Part shown: piece after piece, positions 1,770-29,333 of the stretch
How the letters are laid out: the number at the start of each line of letters is the position of its first letter
Numbering within the stretch: position 1 is the first letter of the stretch
Program-made: the position numbers and the translations under genes
Notes under the pieces: model-generated
The model's input: the letters and a program-made list of their open reading frames with translations, nothing else
Databases searched by the model: none
What the model was told of the DNA's origin: nothing
Assembly (NCBI GenBank): GCA_964361085.1
Contig: CAYHZK010000003.1
Coordinates: 1 to 32,735, forward strand
Source: an uncultured Planctomycetales bacterium
Lineage (GTDB): Bacteria; Omnitrophota; Gorgyraeia; Zapsychrales; JANLHA01
DNA length: 32,735 nucleotides
Direction of reading: 5' to 3'

Positions 1770-2717
1770 ATGAAACTCATCATCCAGATCCCCTGCCTCA
1801 ATGAAGAGCAAAGCCTTCCGGCAACGCTCAAAGACCTGCCGCAAAAGATTGAAGGGATCGATACCATTGAGATTTTGGTGATCGACGACGGCAGCAGCGA
1901 CCGCACCGCCCAGGTTGCCCGGGAGCAGGGCGCGCATCATATCGTGCGATTTACGAAACGGTGCGGGCTGGCCAGGGCCTTCAGCGCGGGGCTGGATGCC
2001 GGGTTAAAGACGGGCGCGGATATCATCGTTAATACCGACGCCGACGGGCAGTATAAGGGTGAGGATATTCCCCGTCTTGTGCGGCCGATTCTCAACGGGG
2101 AGGCTGATGTTGTCATCGGCAACCGTGATATCGAAAACGTCAGGCAATTTTCGTTCATTAAAAAACGGCTTCAGCGATTGGGCAGCTGGGTCGTGCGCAA
2201 TTTGTCCGGCACCACCGTGCCTGACGCGACGACGGGGTTTCGCGCTTACAGCCGCGAGGCCGCCCTGAGGATGAATATCGTTTCGGCTTACACCTATACT
2301 CTGGAAAGTCTTATCCAGGCCCAGCATAAGAACCTCGCTATCGCGAATATCACCATTCACACGAATGAGGTGACCCGCGAATCCCGTTTGTTCAAAAGCA
2401 TGTGGCAGTATATTGCCCGATCCATGGTCACGATCTTGCGGATCTATGCCATGTACAATCCCCTCAAAACTTTTGTTATCGCGGGATGTGGGCTGTCGCT
2501 GGCCGGATTTCTGATCGGCTGCCGGTTTGTGTATTATTATCTGCTTGGCTACGGCAGCGGGCACACCCAATCCCTGATTTTGGCGGCCATCCTCTTGATT
2601 GTTGGTTTTCAGATGTTTATCGTCGGGCTCGTCGGCGATCTCATCGCCGCCAACCGCCGGCTTATCGAGGACACCCTGTATCGAGTCCGGGAAATCGAGT
2701 CAAGGGAAAATTCTTAG
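1770..2717 (+). CDS. GT2 glycosyltransferase, GtrB/ArnC/Dpm1-type polyprenyl-phosphate sugar synthase
   Basis: 315 aa. GT-A motifs VIDDGSSDRT and NTDADGQY. Two C-terminal TM helices (FVIAGCGLSLAGFLIGC, LILAAILLIVGFQMFIVGLVG), typical of this clade. GGAGA lies 7 nt upstream of the ATG. Confidence 0.85.
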   Translation: MKLIIQIPCLNEEQSLPATLKDLPQKIEGIDTIEILVIDDGSSDRTAQVAREQGAHHIVRFTKRCGLARAFSAGLDAGLKTGADIIVNTDADGQYKGEDIPRLVRPILNGEADVVIGNRDIENVRQFSFIKKRLQRLGSWVVRNLSGTTVPDATTGFRAYSREAALRMNIVSAYTYTLESLIQAQHKNLAIANITIHTNEVTRESRLFKSMWQYIARSMVTILRIYAMYNPLKTFVIAGCGLSLAGFLIGCRFVYYYLLGYGSGHTQSLILAAILLIVGFQMFIVGLVGDLIAANRRLIEDTLYRVREIESRENS

Positions 2718-2739
2718 TGAATGTCTGCGCGGGACAGGG

Positions 2740-3474
2740 TCAGGACAATTTATTTTTGAGGACGATTTTTAAGGTGTGCAATTTTCTTAAGACATCGAAC
2801 CGGATCCGCTGAAAAACCGTGAATCTTTTGTCATTGATCCCGCTGTAAAAGATGCCTCCTTCCCTCCGCGCGATGTGCCGGAGGAATTTCTCTTGATCCT
2901 CCATAAAAGGCTGCTCGGAAGTTTTCTGCAAACAGACGCACAACAGCTCATTCATGACTGTCTGTTCCACGATCTGATATCCGTTTTCTTCGGCTAGCAC
3001 GCGAAAGAAATCCCTTGAGTAATAATTGTTGCAGTGATATTTCCATTGACCGTTCTGGTCCAGTTCTTCAACCGCCGGAATGATATGGATCATCAGACCG
3101 CCTTTTTTCGTGGCGCGATGGATATTTTGAAAACAGATAAACTGCGCCTCATAAGGCTCCACGTGTTCTGTTGTCCCGGAGTTGGTGACGATGTCGAAAT
3201 GTCCGATCCACTCGGGGCGATCCATGGGGCGCGCCAGGTCAACCGCCACGGCCCCGTCTCGTCCGTTCATATCAACCGAGGTGTGCTCCACACCCAGCTT
3301 TGAATAATATTCTTTGCCCTTCTTTTCGGGGATCGTCGGCGAAAAGGTCTTTCCCCAGAAGGCATTGAGGATATTTTGATTGCCGAGTTCCAGCATGCGT
3401 TTCCCTTGCGGCGCGCCTAAATATTTTGAGATGCAGCTATTGATAAACGCGATATGGTGCGGGAAATAAGCCAT
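2740..3474 (-). CDS. class I SAM-dependent methyltransferase (probable)
   Basis: 244 aa. Motif-I-like RMLELGNQN, DIVTNSGTTEHV and KKGGLMIHIIP fit the layout of Methyltransf_11/23-type enzymes. Lies within the glycosylation operon. Confidence 0.55.
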   Translation of the reverse strand: MAYFPHHIAFINSCISKYLGAPQGKRMLELGNQNILNAFWGKTFSPTIPEKKGKEYYSKLGVEHTSVDMNGRDGAVAVDLARPMDRPEWIGHFDIVTNSGTTEHVEPYEAQFICFQNIHRATKKGGLMIHIIPAVEELDQNGQWKYHCNNYYSRDFFRVLAEENGYQIVEQTVMNELLCVCLQKTSEQPFMEDQEKFLRHIARREGGIFYSGINDKRFTVFQRIRFDVLRKLHTLKIVLKNKLS

Positions 3475-10720: not shown

Positions 10721-11217
10721 TCATTCCCCAATTGACAATCCGTACCTATGGAGATCCCTGTTTGCGAAAAAAATCCGTGTCCGTCGATCATGTCGGCCCC
10801 GGGGAACGGATGCTCATCAAGGCCATGCTGGCTGCGATGTATGAGCACAAGGGGGTTGGGCTGGCCGCCCCTCAGGTCGGCGTCAATCAGCAGATTTTCG
10901 TGGTGGATATCGGCGAAGGCCCCATCGCCGTGATCAATCCCAGGATTATCAAACGCTCCGGCGCGGAAAAGCGGGAGGAAGGGTGCCTCAGCATCCCCGG
11001 GGTCATGCTCAACGTCCGCCGGCCCCAAAGAATCGTCGTCAAATACACCGATGAACACAATCAAACCGTCGAGCGGGAGCTGAATGACCTTTTAGCGCGG
11101 GTTTTTTTGCACGAGAACGATCATCTCCTCGGCAAGCTGATCATCGATTACGCGGGGCTGCGGGATAAAATCAAGATCAAAAAACAATTGCACGAGCTGA
11201 TCAAAAAGCAGGCGTGA
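10717..11217 (+). CDS. def: peptide deformylase
   Basis: 166 aa with the three motifs GVGLAAPQVG, EGCLSIPG and HENDHL. ATGA overlap with the panD stop. Confidence 0.95.
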   Translation: MIIPQLTIRTYGDPCLRKKSVSVDHVGPGERMLIKAMLAAMYEHKGVGLAAPQVGVNQQIFVVDIGEGPIAVINPRIIKRSGAEKREEGCLSIPGVMLNVRRPQRIVVKYTDEHNQTVERELNDLLARVFLHENDHLLGKLIIDYAGLRDKIKIKKQLHELIKKQA

Positions 11218-14503: not shown

Positions 14504-14536
14504 CGTATTTCGTAGTTTGTATTCCGCAAAATACAA
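14504..14536 (+). repeat. short dispersed repeat, copy B (inverted partner at 29264-29302)
   Basis: CGTATTTCGTAGTTTGTATTCCGCAAAATACAA. It shares the exact 14-mer TTCGTAGTTTGTAT and flanks with the reverse complement of 29264-29302 (29 of 33 positions by hand alignment, allowing two gaps). Embedded in the inverted repeat CGGAAT...ATTCCG. Confidence 0.55.
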
Positions 14537-18914: not shown

Positions 18915-20777
18915 TTGGATATTCCCTTTTTTCAAACACTGCAGGCGGAATGGCGCACCACCATTTCCATTCCGGAAAAACGGCGGGGATTTGTTTACGG
19001 CGCCCTGCTGATCCTCTGTTTCCTCGTCTTCAGCAACAGTCTCAATAATCCGTTTTTAATGGACGACTACTCCATGATCCTCACCAACAAGGCCATCGGG
19101 GATCCCGGTCATTTGCAGATTTTCCCGTTCGGCTTTTCCCGGGTGGACGGCGCCGCCTACCTTTATTACCGGCCGGTCTTGCATCTTTTGTTTTTCATCT
19201 CCTTCCGCTTGTTCGGTTACCAGGTTTTTGGCTATCATCTCTTCAACTTCATTTTATTTTACTTGTGCGGGCTCATCCTGTTTCATTTCTGCAAGGCCCT
19301 GTTCGGGGATTGGAAATTCGCGTTTTTGACAAGCGCGCTGTTTTGCGCCCATCCTATCAACGGCGTCCTGGTGAATTACACGACGACAGCCGCGTATGAG
19401 GTCCTGATCCTGGCCATGCTGGGCGGATTTTTGTGTTTCCACCAAGGGACTGTTGCAAAACGCCCATCTGCGGCGTTATCTCCTCGTTCGTTTGTGCGAC
19501 GTCCAATAAGGACGCCTCCGCGCTCACTCGTCGATGCCTTGCATCTGGCCATTTTGCAACAGTCCCGCCAATGGATTGAAACCGGTCGCCGGCGCTGGCA
19601 GGCGGCGGGGTTATTGCTTTTTGGCCTGTCGTTGCTGTGCCATGAGATCGCCATGGTCTTTCCTTTTTACCTGGCCGCGATGCTGTATTTCGTCAAAAGG
19701 TGTTCCATCAGAAAAACCTTGATGACGATTGTCCCGTCGCTGATCCTCCTCATGGTGTTTTTCATTTTTCGAATGCGATACGCCAGTTTGAAAACCGGCG
19801 TGCTCGATCACATCGGTTCCTGGCATTTGTCCTGGTCCGGATATCTGGCCTCCTTCGCCAGCCTGATTCGTCACTATCTTTTTAACCTCGTTTTCTTAAG
19901 AGACATTGTTTTGATGTGGGCGACACCGGTCATTCGCGACGGTGACGGCGTCATCGCGCTGGGCTTGATTTCCGCGCTTTTAATCGCTGTGCGCCAGCTT
20001 TTTTATCACCGCCGCAACCGGCCTTTTGCGCTGGGCCTGTCCTGGTTTTTGATCGGCCTGGGTCCCTTGGCGCTGGCCTGTTTTTCCCGTCCCGAGGCGG
20101 GCTTCATCATGGCCCCGCACTGGTTGTTCTTTTCGACGATCGGGTTTTGTATCTTTCTGGCGTCGGCAATTATGGATTTCAAAGACCGGTATCCGTTGCG
20201 CTGGATCACCGTGGGGATCGTCTGCCTGCTGGGAAGTTATGTCCTCACAAGCCGGGAATACAATAAACTCTGGGGCCATGAAAAGGCTTATTGTCAGCAT
20301 ATGCTTGCCCTGTCGCCCGACATGCAGTTTCCCGCGTTCTGGCTGGCCGATGTTGCCATGCGGGAAGGGGATTGGCAACAGGCCAGGGCGTATCTGGAAA
20401 AAACCCTGGACGCGCCGGTGCCCAATTGGCAGACGTATGCCAATCTGGGTTTTGCCGAGATGAATCTGGGGAACGACCCTGCGGCGACGGCGTATTTTTA
20501 CACCGCCATCCGCCTCAATCCGTCCGCGCCCGAGGCTTACCACAACCTCGCCATCATGGCCCTGCAAAAGGGAGATTACGAAGGATCGATTGAATTGTTG
20601 AAAAGAGCGATGGCCGTTGACTTTTATTTCCTCCCCGCGAAAAAAACCCTGGCGAGCATTGACCTCGAACGAGGGGAGAACGATAAAGCCAAGGCCCTGC
20701 TTAACGACATCCTTCGCATTGACCCCAGCGACGCCTGGAGCCGTGACGCGTTAGAAAATGTTTTAGCGAATCCTTAG
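18915..20777 (+). CDS. TMTC-like protein: N-terminal GT-C (PMT_2-type) membrane glycosyltransferase fused to C-terminal TPR repeats
   Basis: 620 aa; TTG start, with no in-frame ATG nearby. First-loop acidic motif NPFLMDDYSM, about 10 TM helices, then TPR repeats (WQQARAYLEKTL..., YANLGFAEMNLGNDPAATAYFYTAIRLNPSAPEAYHNLAIMALQKGDYEGSIELLKRAMAVD...). Carries the 121-nt palindromic element in frame. Confidence 0.8.
   Translation: MDIPFFQTLQAEWRTTISIPEKRRGFVYGALLILCFLVFSNSLNNPFLMDDYSMILTNKAIGDPGHLQIFPFGFSRVDGAAYLYYRPVLHLLFFISFRLFGYQVFGYHLFNFILFYLCGLILFHFCKALFGDWKFAFLTSALFCAHPINGVLVNYTTTAAYEVLILAMLGGFLCFHQGTVAKRPSAALSPRSFVRRPIRTPPRSLVDALHLAILQQSRQWIETGRRRWQAAGLLLFGLSLLCHEIAMVFPFYLAAMLYFVKRCSIRKTLMTIVPSLILLMVFFIFRMRYASLKTGVLDHIGSWHLSWSGYLASFASLIRHYLFNLVFLRDIVLMWATPVIRDGDGVIALGLISALLIAVRQLFYHRRNRPFALGLSWFLIGLGPLALACFSRPEAGFIMAPHWLFFSTIGFCIFLASAIMDFKDRYPLRWITVGIVCLLGSYVLTSREYNKLWGHEKAYCQHMLALSPDMQFPAFWLADVAMREGDWQQARAYLEKTLDAPVPNWQTYANLGFAEMNLGNDPAATAYFYTAIRLNPSAPEAYHNLAIMALQKGDYEGSIELLKRAMAVDFYFLPAKKTLASIDLERGENDKAKALLNDILRIDPSDAWSRDALENVLANP
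19446..19566. mobile_element. MITE/RPE-like palindromic element inserted in frame in the TMTC-like gene
   Basis: Perfect 15-bp terminal inverted repeats GGGACTGTTGCAAAA (19446-60) / TTTTGCAACAGTCCC (19552-66). Flanked by ACCAA (19441-45) and GCCAA (19567-71). 121+5 = 126 nt = 42 codons. No transposase is associated with it. Confidence 0.5.
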
Positions 20778-27100: not shown

Positions 27101-27826
27101 ATGAGAATTTTTGGAAAAAATCCCGTTTTAGAGCGCCTCAAATCCCAGCCGAAAAGCATCCGGACGATTTATGTGCAGGAAGGTCATCCCGACGCCGGGT
27201 ATATCCAGAAAAAAGCCAACAAATGGGGCATCGCGGTCTGCAAGGTGCCGGGGTCCAAGATTCAGAAATTGGCGAGGGATCTGAATACCCAGGGGCTGGT
27301 CGCCGAGGTCGAAGGGTTTTCTTATCTCAGTCTCGACGACCTTTTGCAAAAGGCCAGGACGGACAACGGGACTGTGGTTTTTTTGGATGAGTTGACCGAC
27401 CCGCAAAATTTAGGCGGCATCATCCGCAGTCTGGGGTGTCTGGGGAATTTTTTTATCGTTCTCCCGACGCATCATTCGGTGGAGGTGACGCCGGCGGTCC
27501 TGCGGGTGGCCTGCGGCGCGGATAATTATGTGAGTGTTGCGAAGGTGGCGAATCTGAATCAGGCCATCCTGGCGGCGAAAGAAGAGGGCTTCTGGATCGC
27601 GGGGGCTGTTGTCAAGGGCGGGCAGGATATCGCAACGGCGCGTTTGAATTTTCCTCTGGCGCTGGTTGTCGGGTCCGAGCAGAAAGGGATCCGGGACGTG
27701 ATCCGCAGGCACCTTGATATCGAGTTGTCGATCCCGATGGCCCATGAGCGGCTTTCGCTCAACGCGGCCCATGCGACGACGATTTTTTGTTATGAGATCG
27801 CGCGTCAGAGGAAAATTAAAATATGA
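27101..27826 (+). CDS. rlmB: SpoU/TrmH-family 23S rRNA 2'-O-methyltransferase (RlmB-like)
   Basis: 241 aa from ATG 27101; the 26882 start in the ORF track is an extension through the lipoprotein gene. N-terminal substrate-binding domain FGKNPVLERLK...QGLVAEV. SPOUT motifs LDELTDPQNLGGIIRS, LVVGSEQKGI, SLNAAHATTIF. Confidence 0.78.
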   Translation: MRIFGKNPVLERLKSQPKSIRTIYVQEGHPDAGYIQKKANKWGIAVCKVPGSKIQKLARDLNTQGLVAEVEGFSYLSLDDLLQKARTDNGTVVFLDELTDPQNLGGIIRSLGCLGNFFIVLPTHHSVEVTPAVLRVACGADNYVSVAKVANLNQAILAAKEEGFWIAGAVVKGGQDIATARLNFPLALVVGSEQKGIRDVIRRHLDIELSIPMAHERLSLNAAHATTIFCYEIARQRKIKI

Positions 27827-28451: not shown

Positions 28452-29333
28452 ATGGCGGCGATTTTCGGTTATTGTTTTCAGCGGTTCCGGGTTTTGTGGG
28501 TTTTGTTCTTTATCATGTCCACGGCGGGCTGCGCGTATAATGTCGCGACCGGCCGTCGGGAGTTGATCCTGATCCCCACAACGACGGAAATCTCCATGGG
28601 ACGGGACATCCACCGCCGGATCGCGTCCAGCGACAAGTTTTCGGCGGACAAAGAGCTGGTGGCGCGGATCGACCGCATCGGCCAGAAGCTCGCGCGGGTT
28701 TCCGACCGGCAGGATTATCAGTATCACTTTTTTGTGATTGAGAAAGACGAGTTGAACGCCTTCACAATCCCCGGCGGCAACATCTATATTTATACCGGAC
28801 TCGTGAATAAACTGAAATCCGACGATGAGATCGCCGCTGTTCTGGCCCACGAGATCGGCCATTGCGCGGCGCGCCATACGATCAAAAAGTTTCAGGCGGC
28901 CGTCGGCTATGATCTGATCGGCGGGATCATCTTAAACGAAGTCGGCATGCAGGAGCAGGTTCGCCGCATCGCCTCGATGAGTTCCAGCGCGGTCATGCGG
29001 CTGGTTTTCTCGGCCTATGGCCGGCAGGACGAACACGAATCGGATAAGCTCGGCCTGAAATATATGGACCTGGCCGGTTATGATCTGGACGGCATGGTCG
29101 GATCTTTTCAGGTTTTAGAGAAGGAATCAAAAGGCCCTGATGTGCCTCTTATCCTGCGCACCCACCCGTATATCAGCGATCGCATCAAGGCCGTCCGGGA
29201 AGAAATTCAGAAGATCCGTTCCGGCGGAACGACAATGTCTCCCCGCCAACGGAGTAGCGTAAATTGTTTTTACGAGATACAAACTACGAACGACGAGATA
29301 CGTTGTAAATCGCCATGGAACGCATTGGTTTAG
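28452..29333 (+). CDS. M48-family zinc metalloprotease lipoprotein (YcaL/BepA-like)
   Basis: 293 aa. Lipobox FIMSTAGC, HExxH motif AVLAHEIGHCAARH, downstream E in QDEHESDKLG. The last ~40 aa run through repeat copy C. Confidence 0.85.
   Translation: MAAIFGYCFQRFRVLWVLFFIMSTAGCAYNVATGRRELILIPTTTEISMGRDIHRRIASSDKFSADKELVARIDRIGQKLARVSDRQDYQYHFFVIEKDELNAFTIPGGNIYIYTGLVNKLKSDDEIAAVLAHEIGHCAARHTIKKFQAAVGYDLIGGIILNEVGMQEQVRRIASMSSSAVMRLVFSAYGRQDEHESDKLGLKYMDLAGYDLDGMVGSFQVLEKESKGPDVPLILRTHPYISDRIKAVREEIQKIRSGGTTMSPRQRSSVNCFYEIQTTNDEIRCKSPWNALV
29264..29302 (-). repeat. short dispersed repeat, copy C (inverted relative to 14504-14536)
   Basis: Reverse complement is CGTATCTCGTCGTTCGTAGTTTGTATCTCGTAAAAACAA. 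On the + strand it shows ACGAGATAC twice (29272-80 and 29293-301, period 21), bracketed by GTAAAT (29259-64 and 29305-10). Confidence 0.55.

Follow-up and report, generated by a model that had tools for sequence, protein, structure and literature searches.

A 121-bp miniature inverted-repeat transposable element in the reading frame of a membrane protein gene from an uncultured bacterium

We analyzed a stretch of 32,735 nucleotides (nt), hereafter the window, from an uncultured bacterium that is labelled Planctomycetales by its source and placed in Omnitrophota by GTDB (GenBank assembly GCA_964361085.1, contig CAYHZK010000003.1). A gene in this window, encoding a membrane protein with tetratricopeptide repeats (TPR), contains a block of 42 codons that is almost certainly the insertion of a miniature inverted-repeat transposable element (MITE) of 121 base pairs (bp). 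In a closely related contig the same gene is without the block, and a further copy of the element occupies a site where the window has none. We consider the account as a whole very likely, namely that the MITE was inserted in frame, that its transposase came in trans from an IS5-like insertion sequence (IS), and that the host protein probably still works.

Filled and empty target sites

The closest homologue of the 620-residue host protein (P0002) has 578 residues, i.e., 620 minus 42, and lacks exactly the 42-residue block. Its contig (L007, hereafter the sibling contig) is syntenic with the window at 92–96% nucleotide identity, and in the nucleotide alignment it is without exactly 126 nt that are present in the window. 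The empty site reads ...TTTTTGTGT|TCCCGCCAATGG..., with the junction TGTGT|TCCCGCCAATGG, and the filled site of the window reads ...TTTTTGTGT TTCCACCAA [GGGACTG...CAGTCCC] GCCAATGG. The target GCCAA, present once in the empty site, is doubled around the element in the window, where the left copy has changed to ACCAA and one more substitution lies 3 nt upstream. An earlier note on this DNA, made from the letters alone, had taken the flanks ACCAA and GCCAA for a target-site duplication (TSD), and the single GCCAA of the sibling bears this out. It had also counted the 121 nt of the element plus 5 nt of duplication as 126 nt or 42 codons, in agreement with the length of the closest orthologue, and had given the encoded peptide correctly as GTVAKRPS...ILQQS. 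Element and duplication add up to 126 nt, and no stop codon occurs in the frame used, so that the open reading frame (ORF) of the host gene stays open. A comparison with orthologues had been proposed as well; besides the sibling, all ten aligned homologues, which are more distant (34–43% identity), are without the segment. The insertion arose by DDE transposition, of the cut-and-paste or copy-and-paste type, in which GCCAA was cut with a 5-bp stagger; it hit the loop-encoding part of a gene for a membrane/TPR (PMT_2-related) protein.

The reverse situation was observed at a second site. Positions 10946–10997 of the sibling contig read ...TTTTTACGAGAT|GGGACTGTTGCAAAACGCCCATCTGCG, after which the contig ends; the element part (L007:10971-10997) comprises 27 visible nt that are identical to the start of the window element. 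In the window the corresponding sequence is ...TTTTTACGAGAT|ACAAACTACG. Blastn aligns the two contigs up to window position 29278, and the window is empty at 29278|29279. Window and sibling contig each carry a copy where the other has none. Because the sibling is without the window copy and yet has another copy elsewhere, the element family is shown to have been mobile recently.

The element is bounded by terminal inverted repeats (TIRs). The 15-bp inverted repeat described earlier proved to consist of exact reverse complements 91 nt apart, and the complementarity reaches inward to 26 nt at 85%. Its arms are the sole perfect 15-mer inverted pair no more than 200 nt apart in the window. The earlier note was right that such a repeat is rarely expected by chance, but its figure of below 0.01 was too low: among 200 random windows of matched composition (Markov-1), 4 contained a perfect 15-mer inverted pair within 200 nt (about 2%). 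RNA folding, also suggested in the note, gave values far better than those of dinucleotide shuffles on both strands: the 131-nt stretch folds at -53 kcal/mol on the plus strand (z -5.3) and at -62.8 kcal/mol on the minus strand (z -5.9), and both internal hairpins named in the note are present in the minimum-free-energy (MFE) fold. In the mRNA the plus-strand hairpin might influence stability or translation; RNase III is known to cleave transcripts that contain Correia elements (PMC10969869). The GC content of the element is 57%. It encodes no transposase, and apart from the host gene no long ORF runs across it. No promoter-like or terminator-like site was found in the element, and a search of positions 19200-19800 against Rfam (E <= 10) returned no match to it, the one hit, to a small RNA, being at chance level and outside the element.

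Some observations weigh against this reading. No further copy of the arms was found in the window at up to 3 mismatches, nor was a transposase gene found in these 32.7 kb. Moreover, 2 of 9 nt in the left flank of the element do not agree with the empty site, a proportion above the 4–5% background divergence. The coordinates of the host gene, the element and its parts, together with the second target site, are collected in Table 1.

Table 1. Positions of the host gene, the inserted element and the second, empty target site in the window (., no strand assigned)
Feature	Position	Strand	Remark
Host gene, 620 aa, polytopic membrane protein with C-terminal TPR repeats	18915..20777	+	PMT_2-related family (GT-C-type glycosyltransferases)
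42 extra codons, residues 175-216 (FHQGTVAKRPS...AILQQ)	19437..19562	+	Absent from 10 aligned homologues
Insert junction peptides			...GGFLCFHQGTVAK and ...AILQQSRQWIE
MITE, 121 bp	19446..19566	.	TIRs and non-coding interior with central hairpin
Left TIR GGGACTGTTGCAAAA	19446..19460	+	Presumed transposase-binding end; kept across family copies
Right TIR TTTTGCAACAGTCCC	19552..19566	+	Exact reverse complement of left TIR, 91 nt between
TSD left copy ACCAA, 5 bp	19441..19445	.	1 substitution from GCCAA
TSD right copy GCCAA, 5 bp	19567..19571	.	Single GCCAA in empty site of sibling contig
Central small hairpin ACGTCC-aataa-GGACGC	19499..19515	.	Pairs CGTCC/GGACG in MFE fold, both strands
Empty target GAGAT	29274..29278	.	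Sibling contig has another element copy directly after these bases

Further observations concern the surroundings of the second site. The sibling contig is broken at its repeat copy, which suggests that the element is multi-copy in the sibling genome. This extra copy sits inside the second arm (29268-29295) of a repeat of about 30 nt in the window, CGT..TTCGTAGTTTGTAT..CG.AAAA, whose first arm lies at 14504-14531; the two are in inverted orientation in two intergenic regions. The earlier note had seen a resemblance between this repeat and the interior of the element, which failed in alignment, and the two are unrelated. Near the same site a small indel close to the 3' end of a Peptidase_M48-like gene (window 29240-29333 versus L007:10930-10949) shifts the end of the ORF, which reaches 29333 in the window, and the called gene stops at L007:10949 in the sibling.

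The element family and its relation to known MITEs

Copies of the element were sought by scanning one genome per species with both arms as query, and metagenomes with the inner 12 nt of each arm only, the outer 3 nt being left free. These two-arm scans gave 6 further loci in genomes and 51 in metagenomes, 57 in total. The genome-scan copies lie in metagenome-assembled genomes (MAGs) labelled Omnitrophota, Planctomycetia, Leptonemataceae and Clostridiales and in one unclassified bacterium. Among all loci, one (L009) was rejected as a chance match in a eukaryote-like kinase. The search for copies that the earlier note had recommended turned up many of them with the same arms and different flanks, in addition to the one at another site in the sibling. 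The ends, G[G/A]GACTGTTGCAAAA ... TTTTGCAACAGT[C/T]C, are kept in about 55 copies from other assemblies. At the free outer triplet of the metagenome scan, GAG was found at 50 ends and GGG at 31, and one family copy (L010) has GGC ends. Of 56 usable copies, 21 are flanked by a perfect 5-bp direct repeat immediately outside the 15-nt arms (chance expectation, about 0.05), and a repeat with one mismatch was present in 8 more copies (separate mismatch count, 55 copies). Direct repeats at other offsets or lengths gave no independent signal among the 56 copies.

The arms alone are common to the family. The interiors fall into about 19 subfamilies; a consensus structure computed over them shows pairing of the arms only, with no conserved interior structure, and the other subfamilies have a central hairpin at the equivalent place with a different sequence. 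The window element is 96% identical to the copy on contig L006 and 87% identical to that on L005. Apart from the element, contig L006 has no nucleotide similarity to the window, and the proteins of the two contigs, including a homologue of the host gene product, are 35–47% identical. Such near-identity of the element between hosts whose proteins differ so strongly implies that the element is far younger than the split of its hosts and has been transferred between lineages. Known plasmids and phages, searched by blastn in distant mode, contained no match to the element and no transfer vector was identified among them; viral contigs contained no two-arm match.

These data also bear on whether the block is mobile DNA at all. 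In favor of a native, lineage-specific palindromic coding segment or of an assembly artefact, the window contains a single copy, and assembly errors can yield palindromes. Near-identical copies are nevertheless present in independent assemblies of other projects with unrelated flanks, precise empty sites were found for two genes, 5-bp duplications occur throughout the family, and the codon usage of the insert is foreign to the host gene (see below). The filled/empty pairs and the multi-assembly family effectively refute a native segment or an assembly artefact, to which we assign hardly any probability.

By the working definition in a review of such elements (PMC10969869), the element is a prokaryotic MITE. 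It has 121 bp and no transposase gene (definition, <500 bp without transposase gene) and TIRs of 15 bp perfect and 26 bp at 85% (about 4–30 bp). It shows a TSD (ACCAA/GCCAA in the window, a single GCCAA in the sibling, 21/56 perfect in the family), occupies multiple sites with presence/absence polymorphism (57 loci, the reciprocal sites of window and sibling contig, and the NUDIX alleles described below), and forms a stable stem-loop (z -5.3 and -5.9). It resembles other prokaryotic MITEs (Correia/NEMIS of Neisseria, ERIC, RUP, Nezha, Chunjie, QMITE) in small size, TIRs, TSD and non-coding nature, in stem-loop potential, in its many differently flanked copies, in ends that match those of a candidate autonomous IS family, and in occasional in-frame fusion with host ORFs. 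Unlike these, it is not AT-rich (57% GC), and its hosts are uncultured lineages (Omnitrophota and the MAGs with the other labels given above) instead of cultured pathogens. In the small part of the literature that was covered, no named family with G[G/A]GACTGTTGCAAAA ends and a 5-bp TSD was found.

The earlier note had likened the insert to Rickettsia palindromic elements (RPEs; Ogata et al. 2000, via PMC10969869) and had been aware of in-frame palindromic inserts from a few lineages only. Such inserts are less rare than that, as in-frame MITE fusions are described as 'not unusual' (ERIC, BOX, QMITE1, Anabaena MITEs), with RPEs as the extreme case (PMC10969869). The likeness to RPEs stands for the in-frame palindrome: both are palindromic repeats of about 100–150 bp inside protein genes, read in frame, adding a peptide and leaving the host ORF intact, and several genes are hit (here membrane/TPR, RuvC, NUDIX and lipoprotein genes). 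It fails in other respects: clear TIRs, a 5-bp TSD and a candidate transposase family make the window element a classical MITE, and its family is mostly intergenic (one clean intragenic case among about 56 DNA-sampled copies) and lacks the high intragenic share of some RPE families. Its hosts are free-living and environmental, not obligate intracellular. The likeness is one of outcome, an in-frame palindromic insert.

MITEs and in-frame insertions are already documented, and no new principle is involved here. What this family adds is two filled/empty allele pairs, a broad spread in uncultured phyla and evidence of recent spread between lineages. The pairs of filled and empty alleles in near-identical genomes amount to a natural experiment in which a mobile element adds a segment to a protein. 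An apparently unnamed MITE family with very conserved ends and a candidate IS5-like mobilizer should also be useful for the annotation of MAGs, in which contigs may break at such repeats, as the sibling contig does, and predicted proteins become longer through them.

Several peculiarities were seen among the copies. A 100-nt subfamily (18 copies; L020:1283-1500, L023:1164-1365, L041:4039-4150 and L058:562-680, all from metagenome Ga0197142) has the conserved outer flanks CGAACCC-[CNNNG]-element-[CNNNG]-CAGCCCG beside a GC-rich hairpin resembling repetitive extragenic palindromic (REP) sequences, and forms tandem arrays with identical spacers and a 105-nt period, i.e., element plus 5 nt. This pattern suggests a preferred target or amplification by unequal recombination. 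At L024:1923-2035, L034:3481-3595 and L045:2432-2560, the 12-nt core ACTGTTGCAAAA lies within longer palindromes that pair about 15 nt further outward, and these appear to be separate element families with a common core motif. Two arms-only mini-palindromes with almost no interior, GAGACTGTTGAC TTTTGCAACAGTC (L025:8897-8925 and L049:2080-2108), may be collapsed copies or excision footprints.

A candidate mobilizing insertion sequence

One MITE-bearing contig (L042) carries a copy at 162-281 and, 1.5 kb apart from it, an IS of 1313 bp at 1821-3133. The ends of this IS are GAGACTGGTGCAAAAGC and, as reverse complement, GAGATTGTTGTAAAAGC, and ATAATT (6 bp) flanks it on both sides. It encodes a 342-residue protein with DUF772 and DDE_Tnp_1 domains that scored 191 bits against the NCBIfam model IS5_4 (cut-off 140) and 267.3 bits against IS1182, just under the cut-off of 270. 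A total of 869 homologues of this transposase were found at E < 1e-30, several of which are named 'IS5 family transposase' by their source, and the surrounding DNA was read for eight homologues (ten loci). Six of them, at 73–78% identity and on contigs from other samples (L061, L062, L063, L067/68, L077 and L078), belong to elements with GAGACTG(G/T/C)T(G/C)C... ends. With the IS of L042, ends of the GAGACTG.TGCAAAA type accompany an IS with DUF772 and DDE_Tnp_1 domains at 7 loci, one of them on a MITE-bearing contig. The first 12 nt of the GAG variant of the MITE arm are identical to the IS end of L061. A clean 5-bp duplication, AACGT, flanks the IS of L067, and the duplication of L061 is offset by one base. 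More distant relatives have diverged ends: GAGAATGCTGAAAAAG at about 51% identity to the L042 transposase, and GGGCCTGTTGCG in an annotated IS5-family element on a Mesorhizobium plasmid, at 34%. A Priestia relative of the IS1182 family (L059) was dismissed, its ends GGAGACCTCCGAAAAAA being unlike the MITE arm. Viral contigs contained no relative of the L042 transposase.

Local alignments of the MITE against 70-nt IS ends scored 9–18, with similarity confined to the terminal 15–17 nt or so; judged from these alignments, the MITE–IS relationship is of type II, with an interior that is not derived from the IS (not type I). The MITE arms match the ends of these elements of about 1.3 kb (IS5-family/IS1182-like, DUF772 + DDE_Tnp_1), and the 5-bp duplication of the MITE compares with 5 or 6 bp in the IS5-like elements where it is readable. 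IS5 itself makes a 4-bp duplication. The transposase would be supplied in trans, most likely by an IS5-like element of about 1.3 kb encoding a DUF772 + DDE_Tnp_1 protein of about 340 residues, with ends GAGACTG[G/T]TGCAAAA. End identity, one co-occurrence on a contig and the compatible duplication length make such an element the probable mobilizer.

Other findings speak against this assignment. The duplications of the IS5-like elements are mostly eroded, and those that can be read are not uniform, with 5 bp in L067 and 6 bp both in L042 and in L060, a distant relative. The IS5-like elements have the GAG variant of the end, and none was found with the GGG type of the window subfamily. The similarity of the arm to the end of IS26, GGCACTGTTGCAAA, is equal (13/14).

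It is very unlikely that the MITE was derived from, and moved by, an element of the IS6/IS26 family. The 14-bp end in question, taken from an 'IS6-like element IS26 family transposase' locus on plasmid NZ_CP023725.1 (L076, ends at about 613 and 1432), is identical to the MITE arm except for one position, and the GGC ends of one family copy (L010) also favor such a source. However, IS6-family elements make 8-bp duplications, whereas that of the MITE is 5 bp in 21 perfect cases and no 8-bp direct repeat was seen at any offset. A tblastn search with the IS26 transposase (Tnp26) against about 58 loci (partial genomes) gave only a 26-residue fragment (E = 0.006), and IS5-like elements with matching ends were found, one sharing a contig with a MITE copy. 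The IS26 end departs at a single position from both the MITE and the IS5-like ends, despite different transposase families, a case of convergence or of shared ancestry of the ends. Tn3-derived inverted-repeat miniature elements (TIMEs) have terminal repeats of about 38 bp (GGGG...TAAG) and a 5-bp duplication; the duplication length fits, but the arms of the present element are of 15–26 nt and seem unlike Tn3-type ends in sequence.

The host protein and other in-frame copies

The earlier note had labelled the host gene product 'GT-C/TPR'. The TPR part is supported by Pfam, whereas the GT-C part is not supported for the protein itself: its own Pfam matches are to TPR families only, and PMT_2 matches 5 of the 11 family members. 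Foldseek against PDB gave TPR matches only, so that the GT-C fold of the membrane domain is not addressed by this search. One homologue (P0005) comes from a source named Candidatus Omnitrophota. The insert peptide is rich in R, P and S. As the note had stated, the insert uses codons that are under-used in the window: TTA, TCA, ATA and AGG occur once each, with relative synonymous codon usage (RSCU) values of 0.32–0.55. The mean RSCU of the insert, 1.01, is below that of every 42-codon window in the rest of the host gene (minimum 1.10).

An AlphaFold2 model of the host protein, built on 11 sequences, had a mean predicted local distance difference test (pLDDT) score of 80 and a predicted template-modelling (pTM) score of 0.80. 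In this model a coil with pLDDT <50 spans residues 182-199, a helix of weak confidence is placed at 205-223, and the insert residues are predicted to be mostly disordered. The insert lies between confident helices at 156-179 and 226-242, and the insertion site falls within a stretch that is variable in the alignment of the homologues.

The subfamily of the window element is found in frame in other genes as well. Four stop-free translations of the element were concatenated and compared with 5.8 billion predicted proteins, which gave 4 matches besides the host protein (P0170-P0173). P0171 is RuvC, with the element peptide between GYGLIEVNKFSS and PSRQVKLLEVGTIEP; we take this position to be the tip of a hairpin in E. 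coli RuvC. P0172 is a NUDIX hydrolase of 224 residues with the peptide after residue 5 (MKNGK), in P0173 the peptide separates the n-region of a lipoprotein signal peptide from its h-region, and in P0170 it is near the N-terminus. The copies in the RuvC gene (121 nt, flanks CATCC/CGTCC), the NUDIX gene (121 nt, GATAG/GACAG) and the lipoprotein gene (124 nt, ATTAA/CTTAA) were confirmed in DNA, and in each of them element plus 5 nt is divisible by three. An empty allele of the NUDIX gene was also found: P0177, with 182 residues, is 98% identical to P0172 and is without exactly 42 residues. These cases agree with the proposal in the earlier note that a non-autonomous element is tolerated in frame. 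In-frame persistence is recurrent in the window subfamily, yet it is a minority outcome, the DNA-sampled copies (about 56) being mostly intergenic and the window copy alone cleanly intragenic. L021 and L041 had been considered intragenic and were rejected because they lie just upstream of gene starts, as were L019, L020, L023 and L034, where the ORFs are spurious ones in GC-rich DNA. At L011:527-647 a copy lies in a trmE/mnmE gene whose TrmE_N match covers profile positions 68-117 only and at which no TSD is visible; the 5' part of this gene appears to have been lost, by insertion plus deletion or because the gene is truncated.

Selection on the host gene was estimated against the sibling orthologue. 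The dN/dS ratio of the whole gene is 0.30, with 0.33 for the part upstream of the insert and 0.29 for the part downstream, and that of the neighbouring greA is 0.03. These estimates show that the host gene is under purifying selection, as an average over the whole divergence of the two genomes and not over the time since the insertion, which limits what they say about the present protein. A second limit is that the open frame says little about function. The element is frame-neutral wherever it inserts and stop-free in 4 of its 6 frames, so that an ORF would survive about two thirds of random insertions into genes, and selection for open frames was not significant with the arms fixed (P = 0.19). 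The selection and model results fit a tolerated loop insertion and do not prove one. Since the insertion lies in a variable loop between helices, the host protein probably still works, and we lean slightly towards a functional product.

A different outcome of the same insertion would be an inactivated gene, i.e., a young pseudogene whose ORF is open only through the frame-neutral and mostly stop-free element. The length of 126 nt with 4 of 6 open frames, being not unusual with the arms fixed (P = 0.19), agrees with it, as do the worst codon usage of the gene within the insert and a hairpin of -53 kcal/mol in the mRNA. Furthermore, the dN/dS of the host gene is ten times that of greA (0.30 versus 0.03), and on the sibling contig a neighbouring gene also weakly matches PMT_2, which makes redundancy possible. 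On the other hand, dN/dS is well under 1 and alike on both sides of the insert, there is no frameshift or stop anywhere across the 620 codons, and the insert lies in a loop of varying sequence among homologues, modelled as coil between intact helices. In-frame copies also persist in normally important genes such as that of RuvC (identical or near-identical alleles in three samples), and the mutated TSD suggests that the insertion is not brand-new. We think this outcome possible, though unlikely. If the insert is retained in the protein, these cases would form a system for testing the tolerance of about 42 disordered residues in inter-helix loops of GT-C-like proteins and in the RuvC hairpin.

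A broader proposal concerns the subfamily itself, which might be an 'ORF-compatible' lineage of length 3n+1, shaped or filtered for survival inside genes, and a recurrent donor of disordered loops of about 42 residues in Omnitrophota-like groundwater bacteria, by an RPE-like route combined with horizontal spread between distant hosts. A length of 3n+1 plus a 5-bp duplication never shifts the frame, and most frames of the element are without stop codons. Frame-neutral lengths are seen in each of the four largest subfamilies, an observation made post hoc, and the enrichment of frame-neutral lengths by subfamily was not significant (9/19, P = 0.15; multi-copy subfamilies 5/8, P = 0.09). ORF-compatibility is statistically not beyond chance, and we regard the proposal as quite improbable.

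Some minor features of these copies and of the window were noted in addition. The copy in the RuvC gene (L069:2232-2352, also L070 and L071) has a double change in its arms, GTTGC->GTCGC on the left and GCAAC->GCGAC on the right, and its inverted repeat is still perfect; this compensatory change, seen in a single case, might go back to a variant master copy or to correction in the hairpin. For some NUDIX alleles (L072-L074, P0176, P0178), gene callers begin the protein at a methionine inside the element (MARCKAS...), an example of how automated annotation can be given alternative or spurious N-termini by such elements. Finally, a 20-nt inverted repeat at 27643-27662 and 27802-27821 of the window (TTTGAATTTTCCTCTGGCGC / GCGTCAGAGGAAAATTAAAA; 90% complementarity, 139 nt between arms) could be another small palindromic element.

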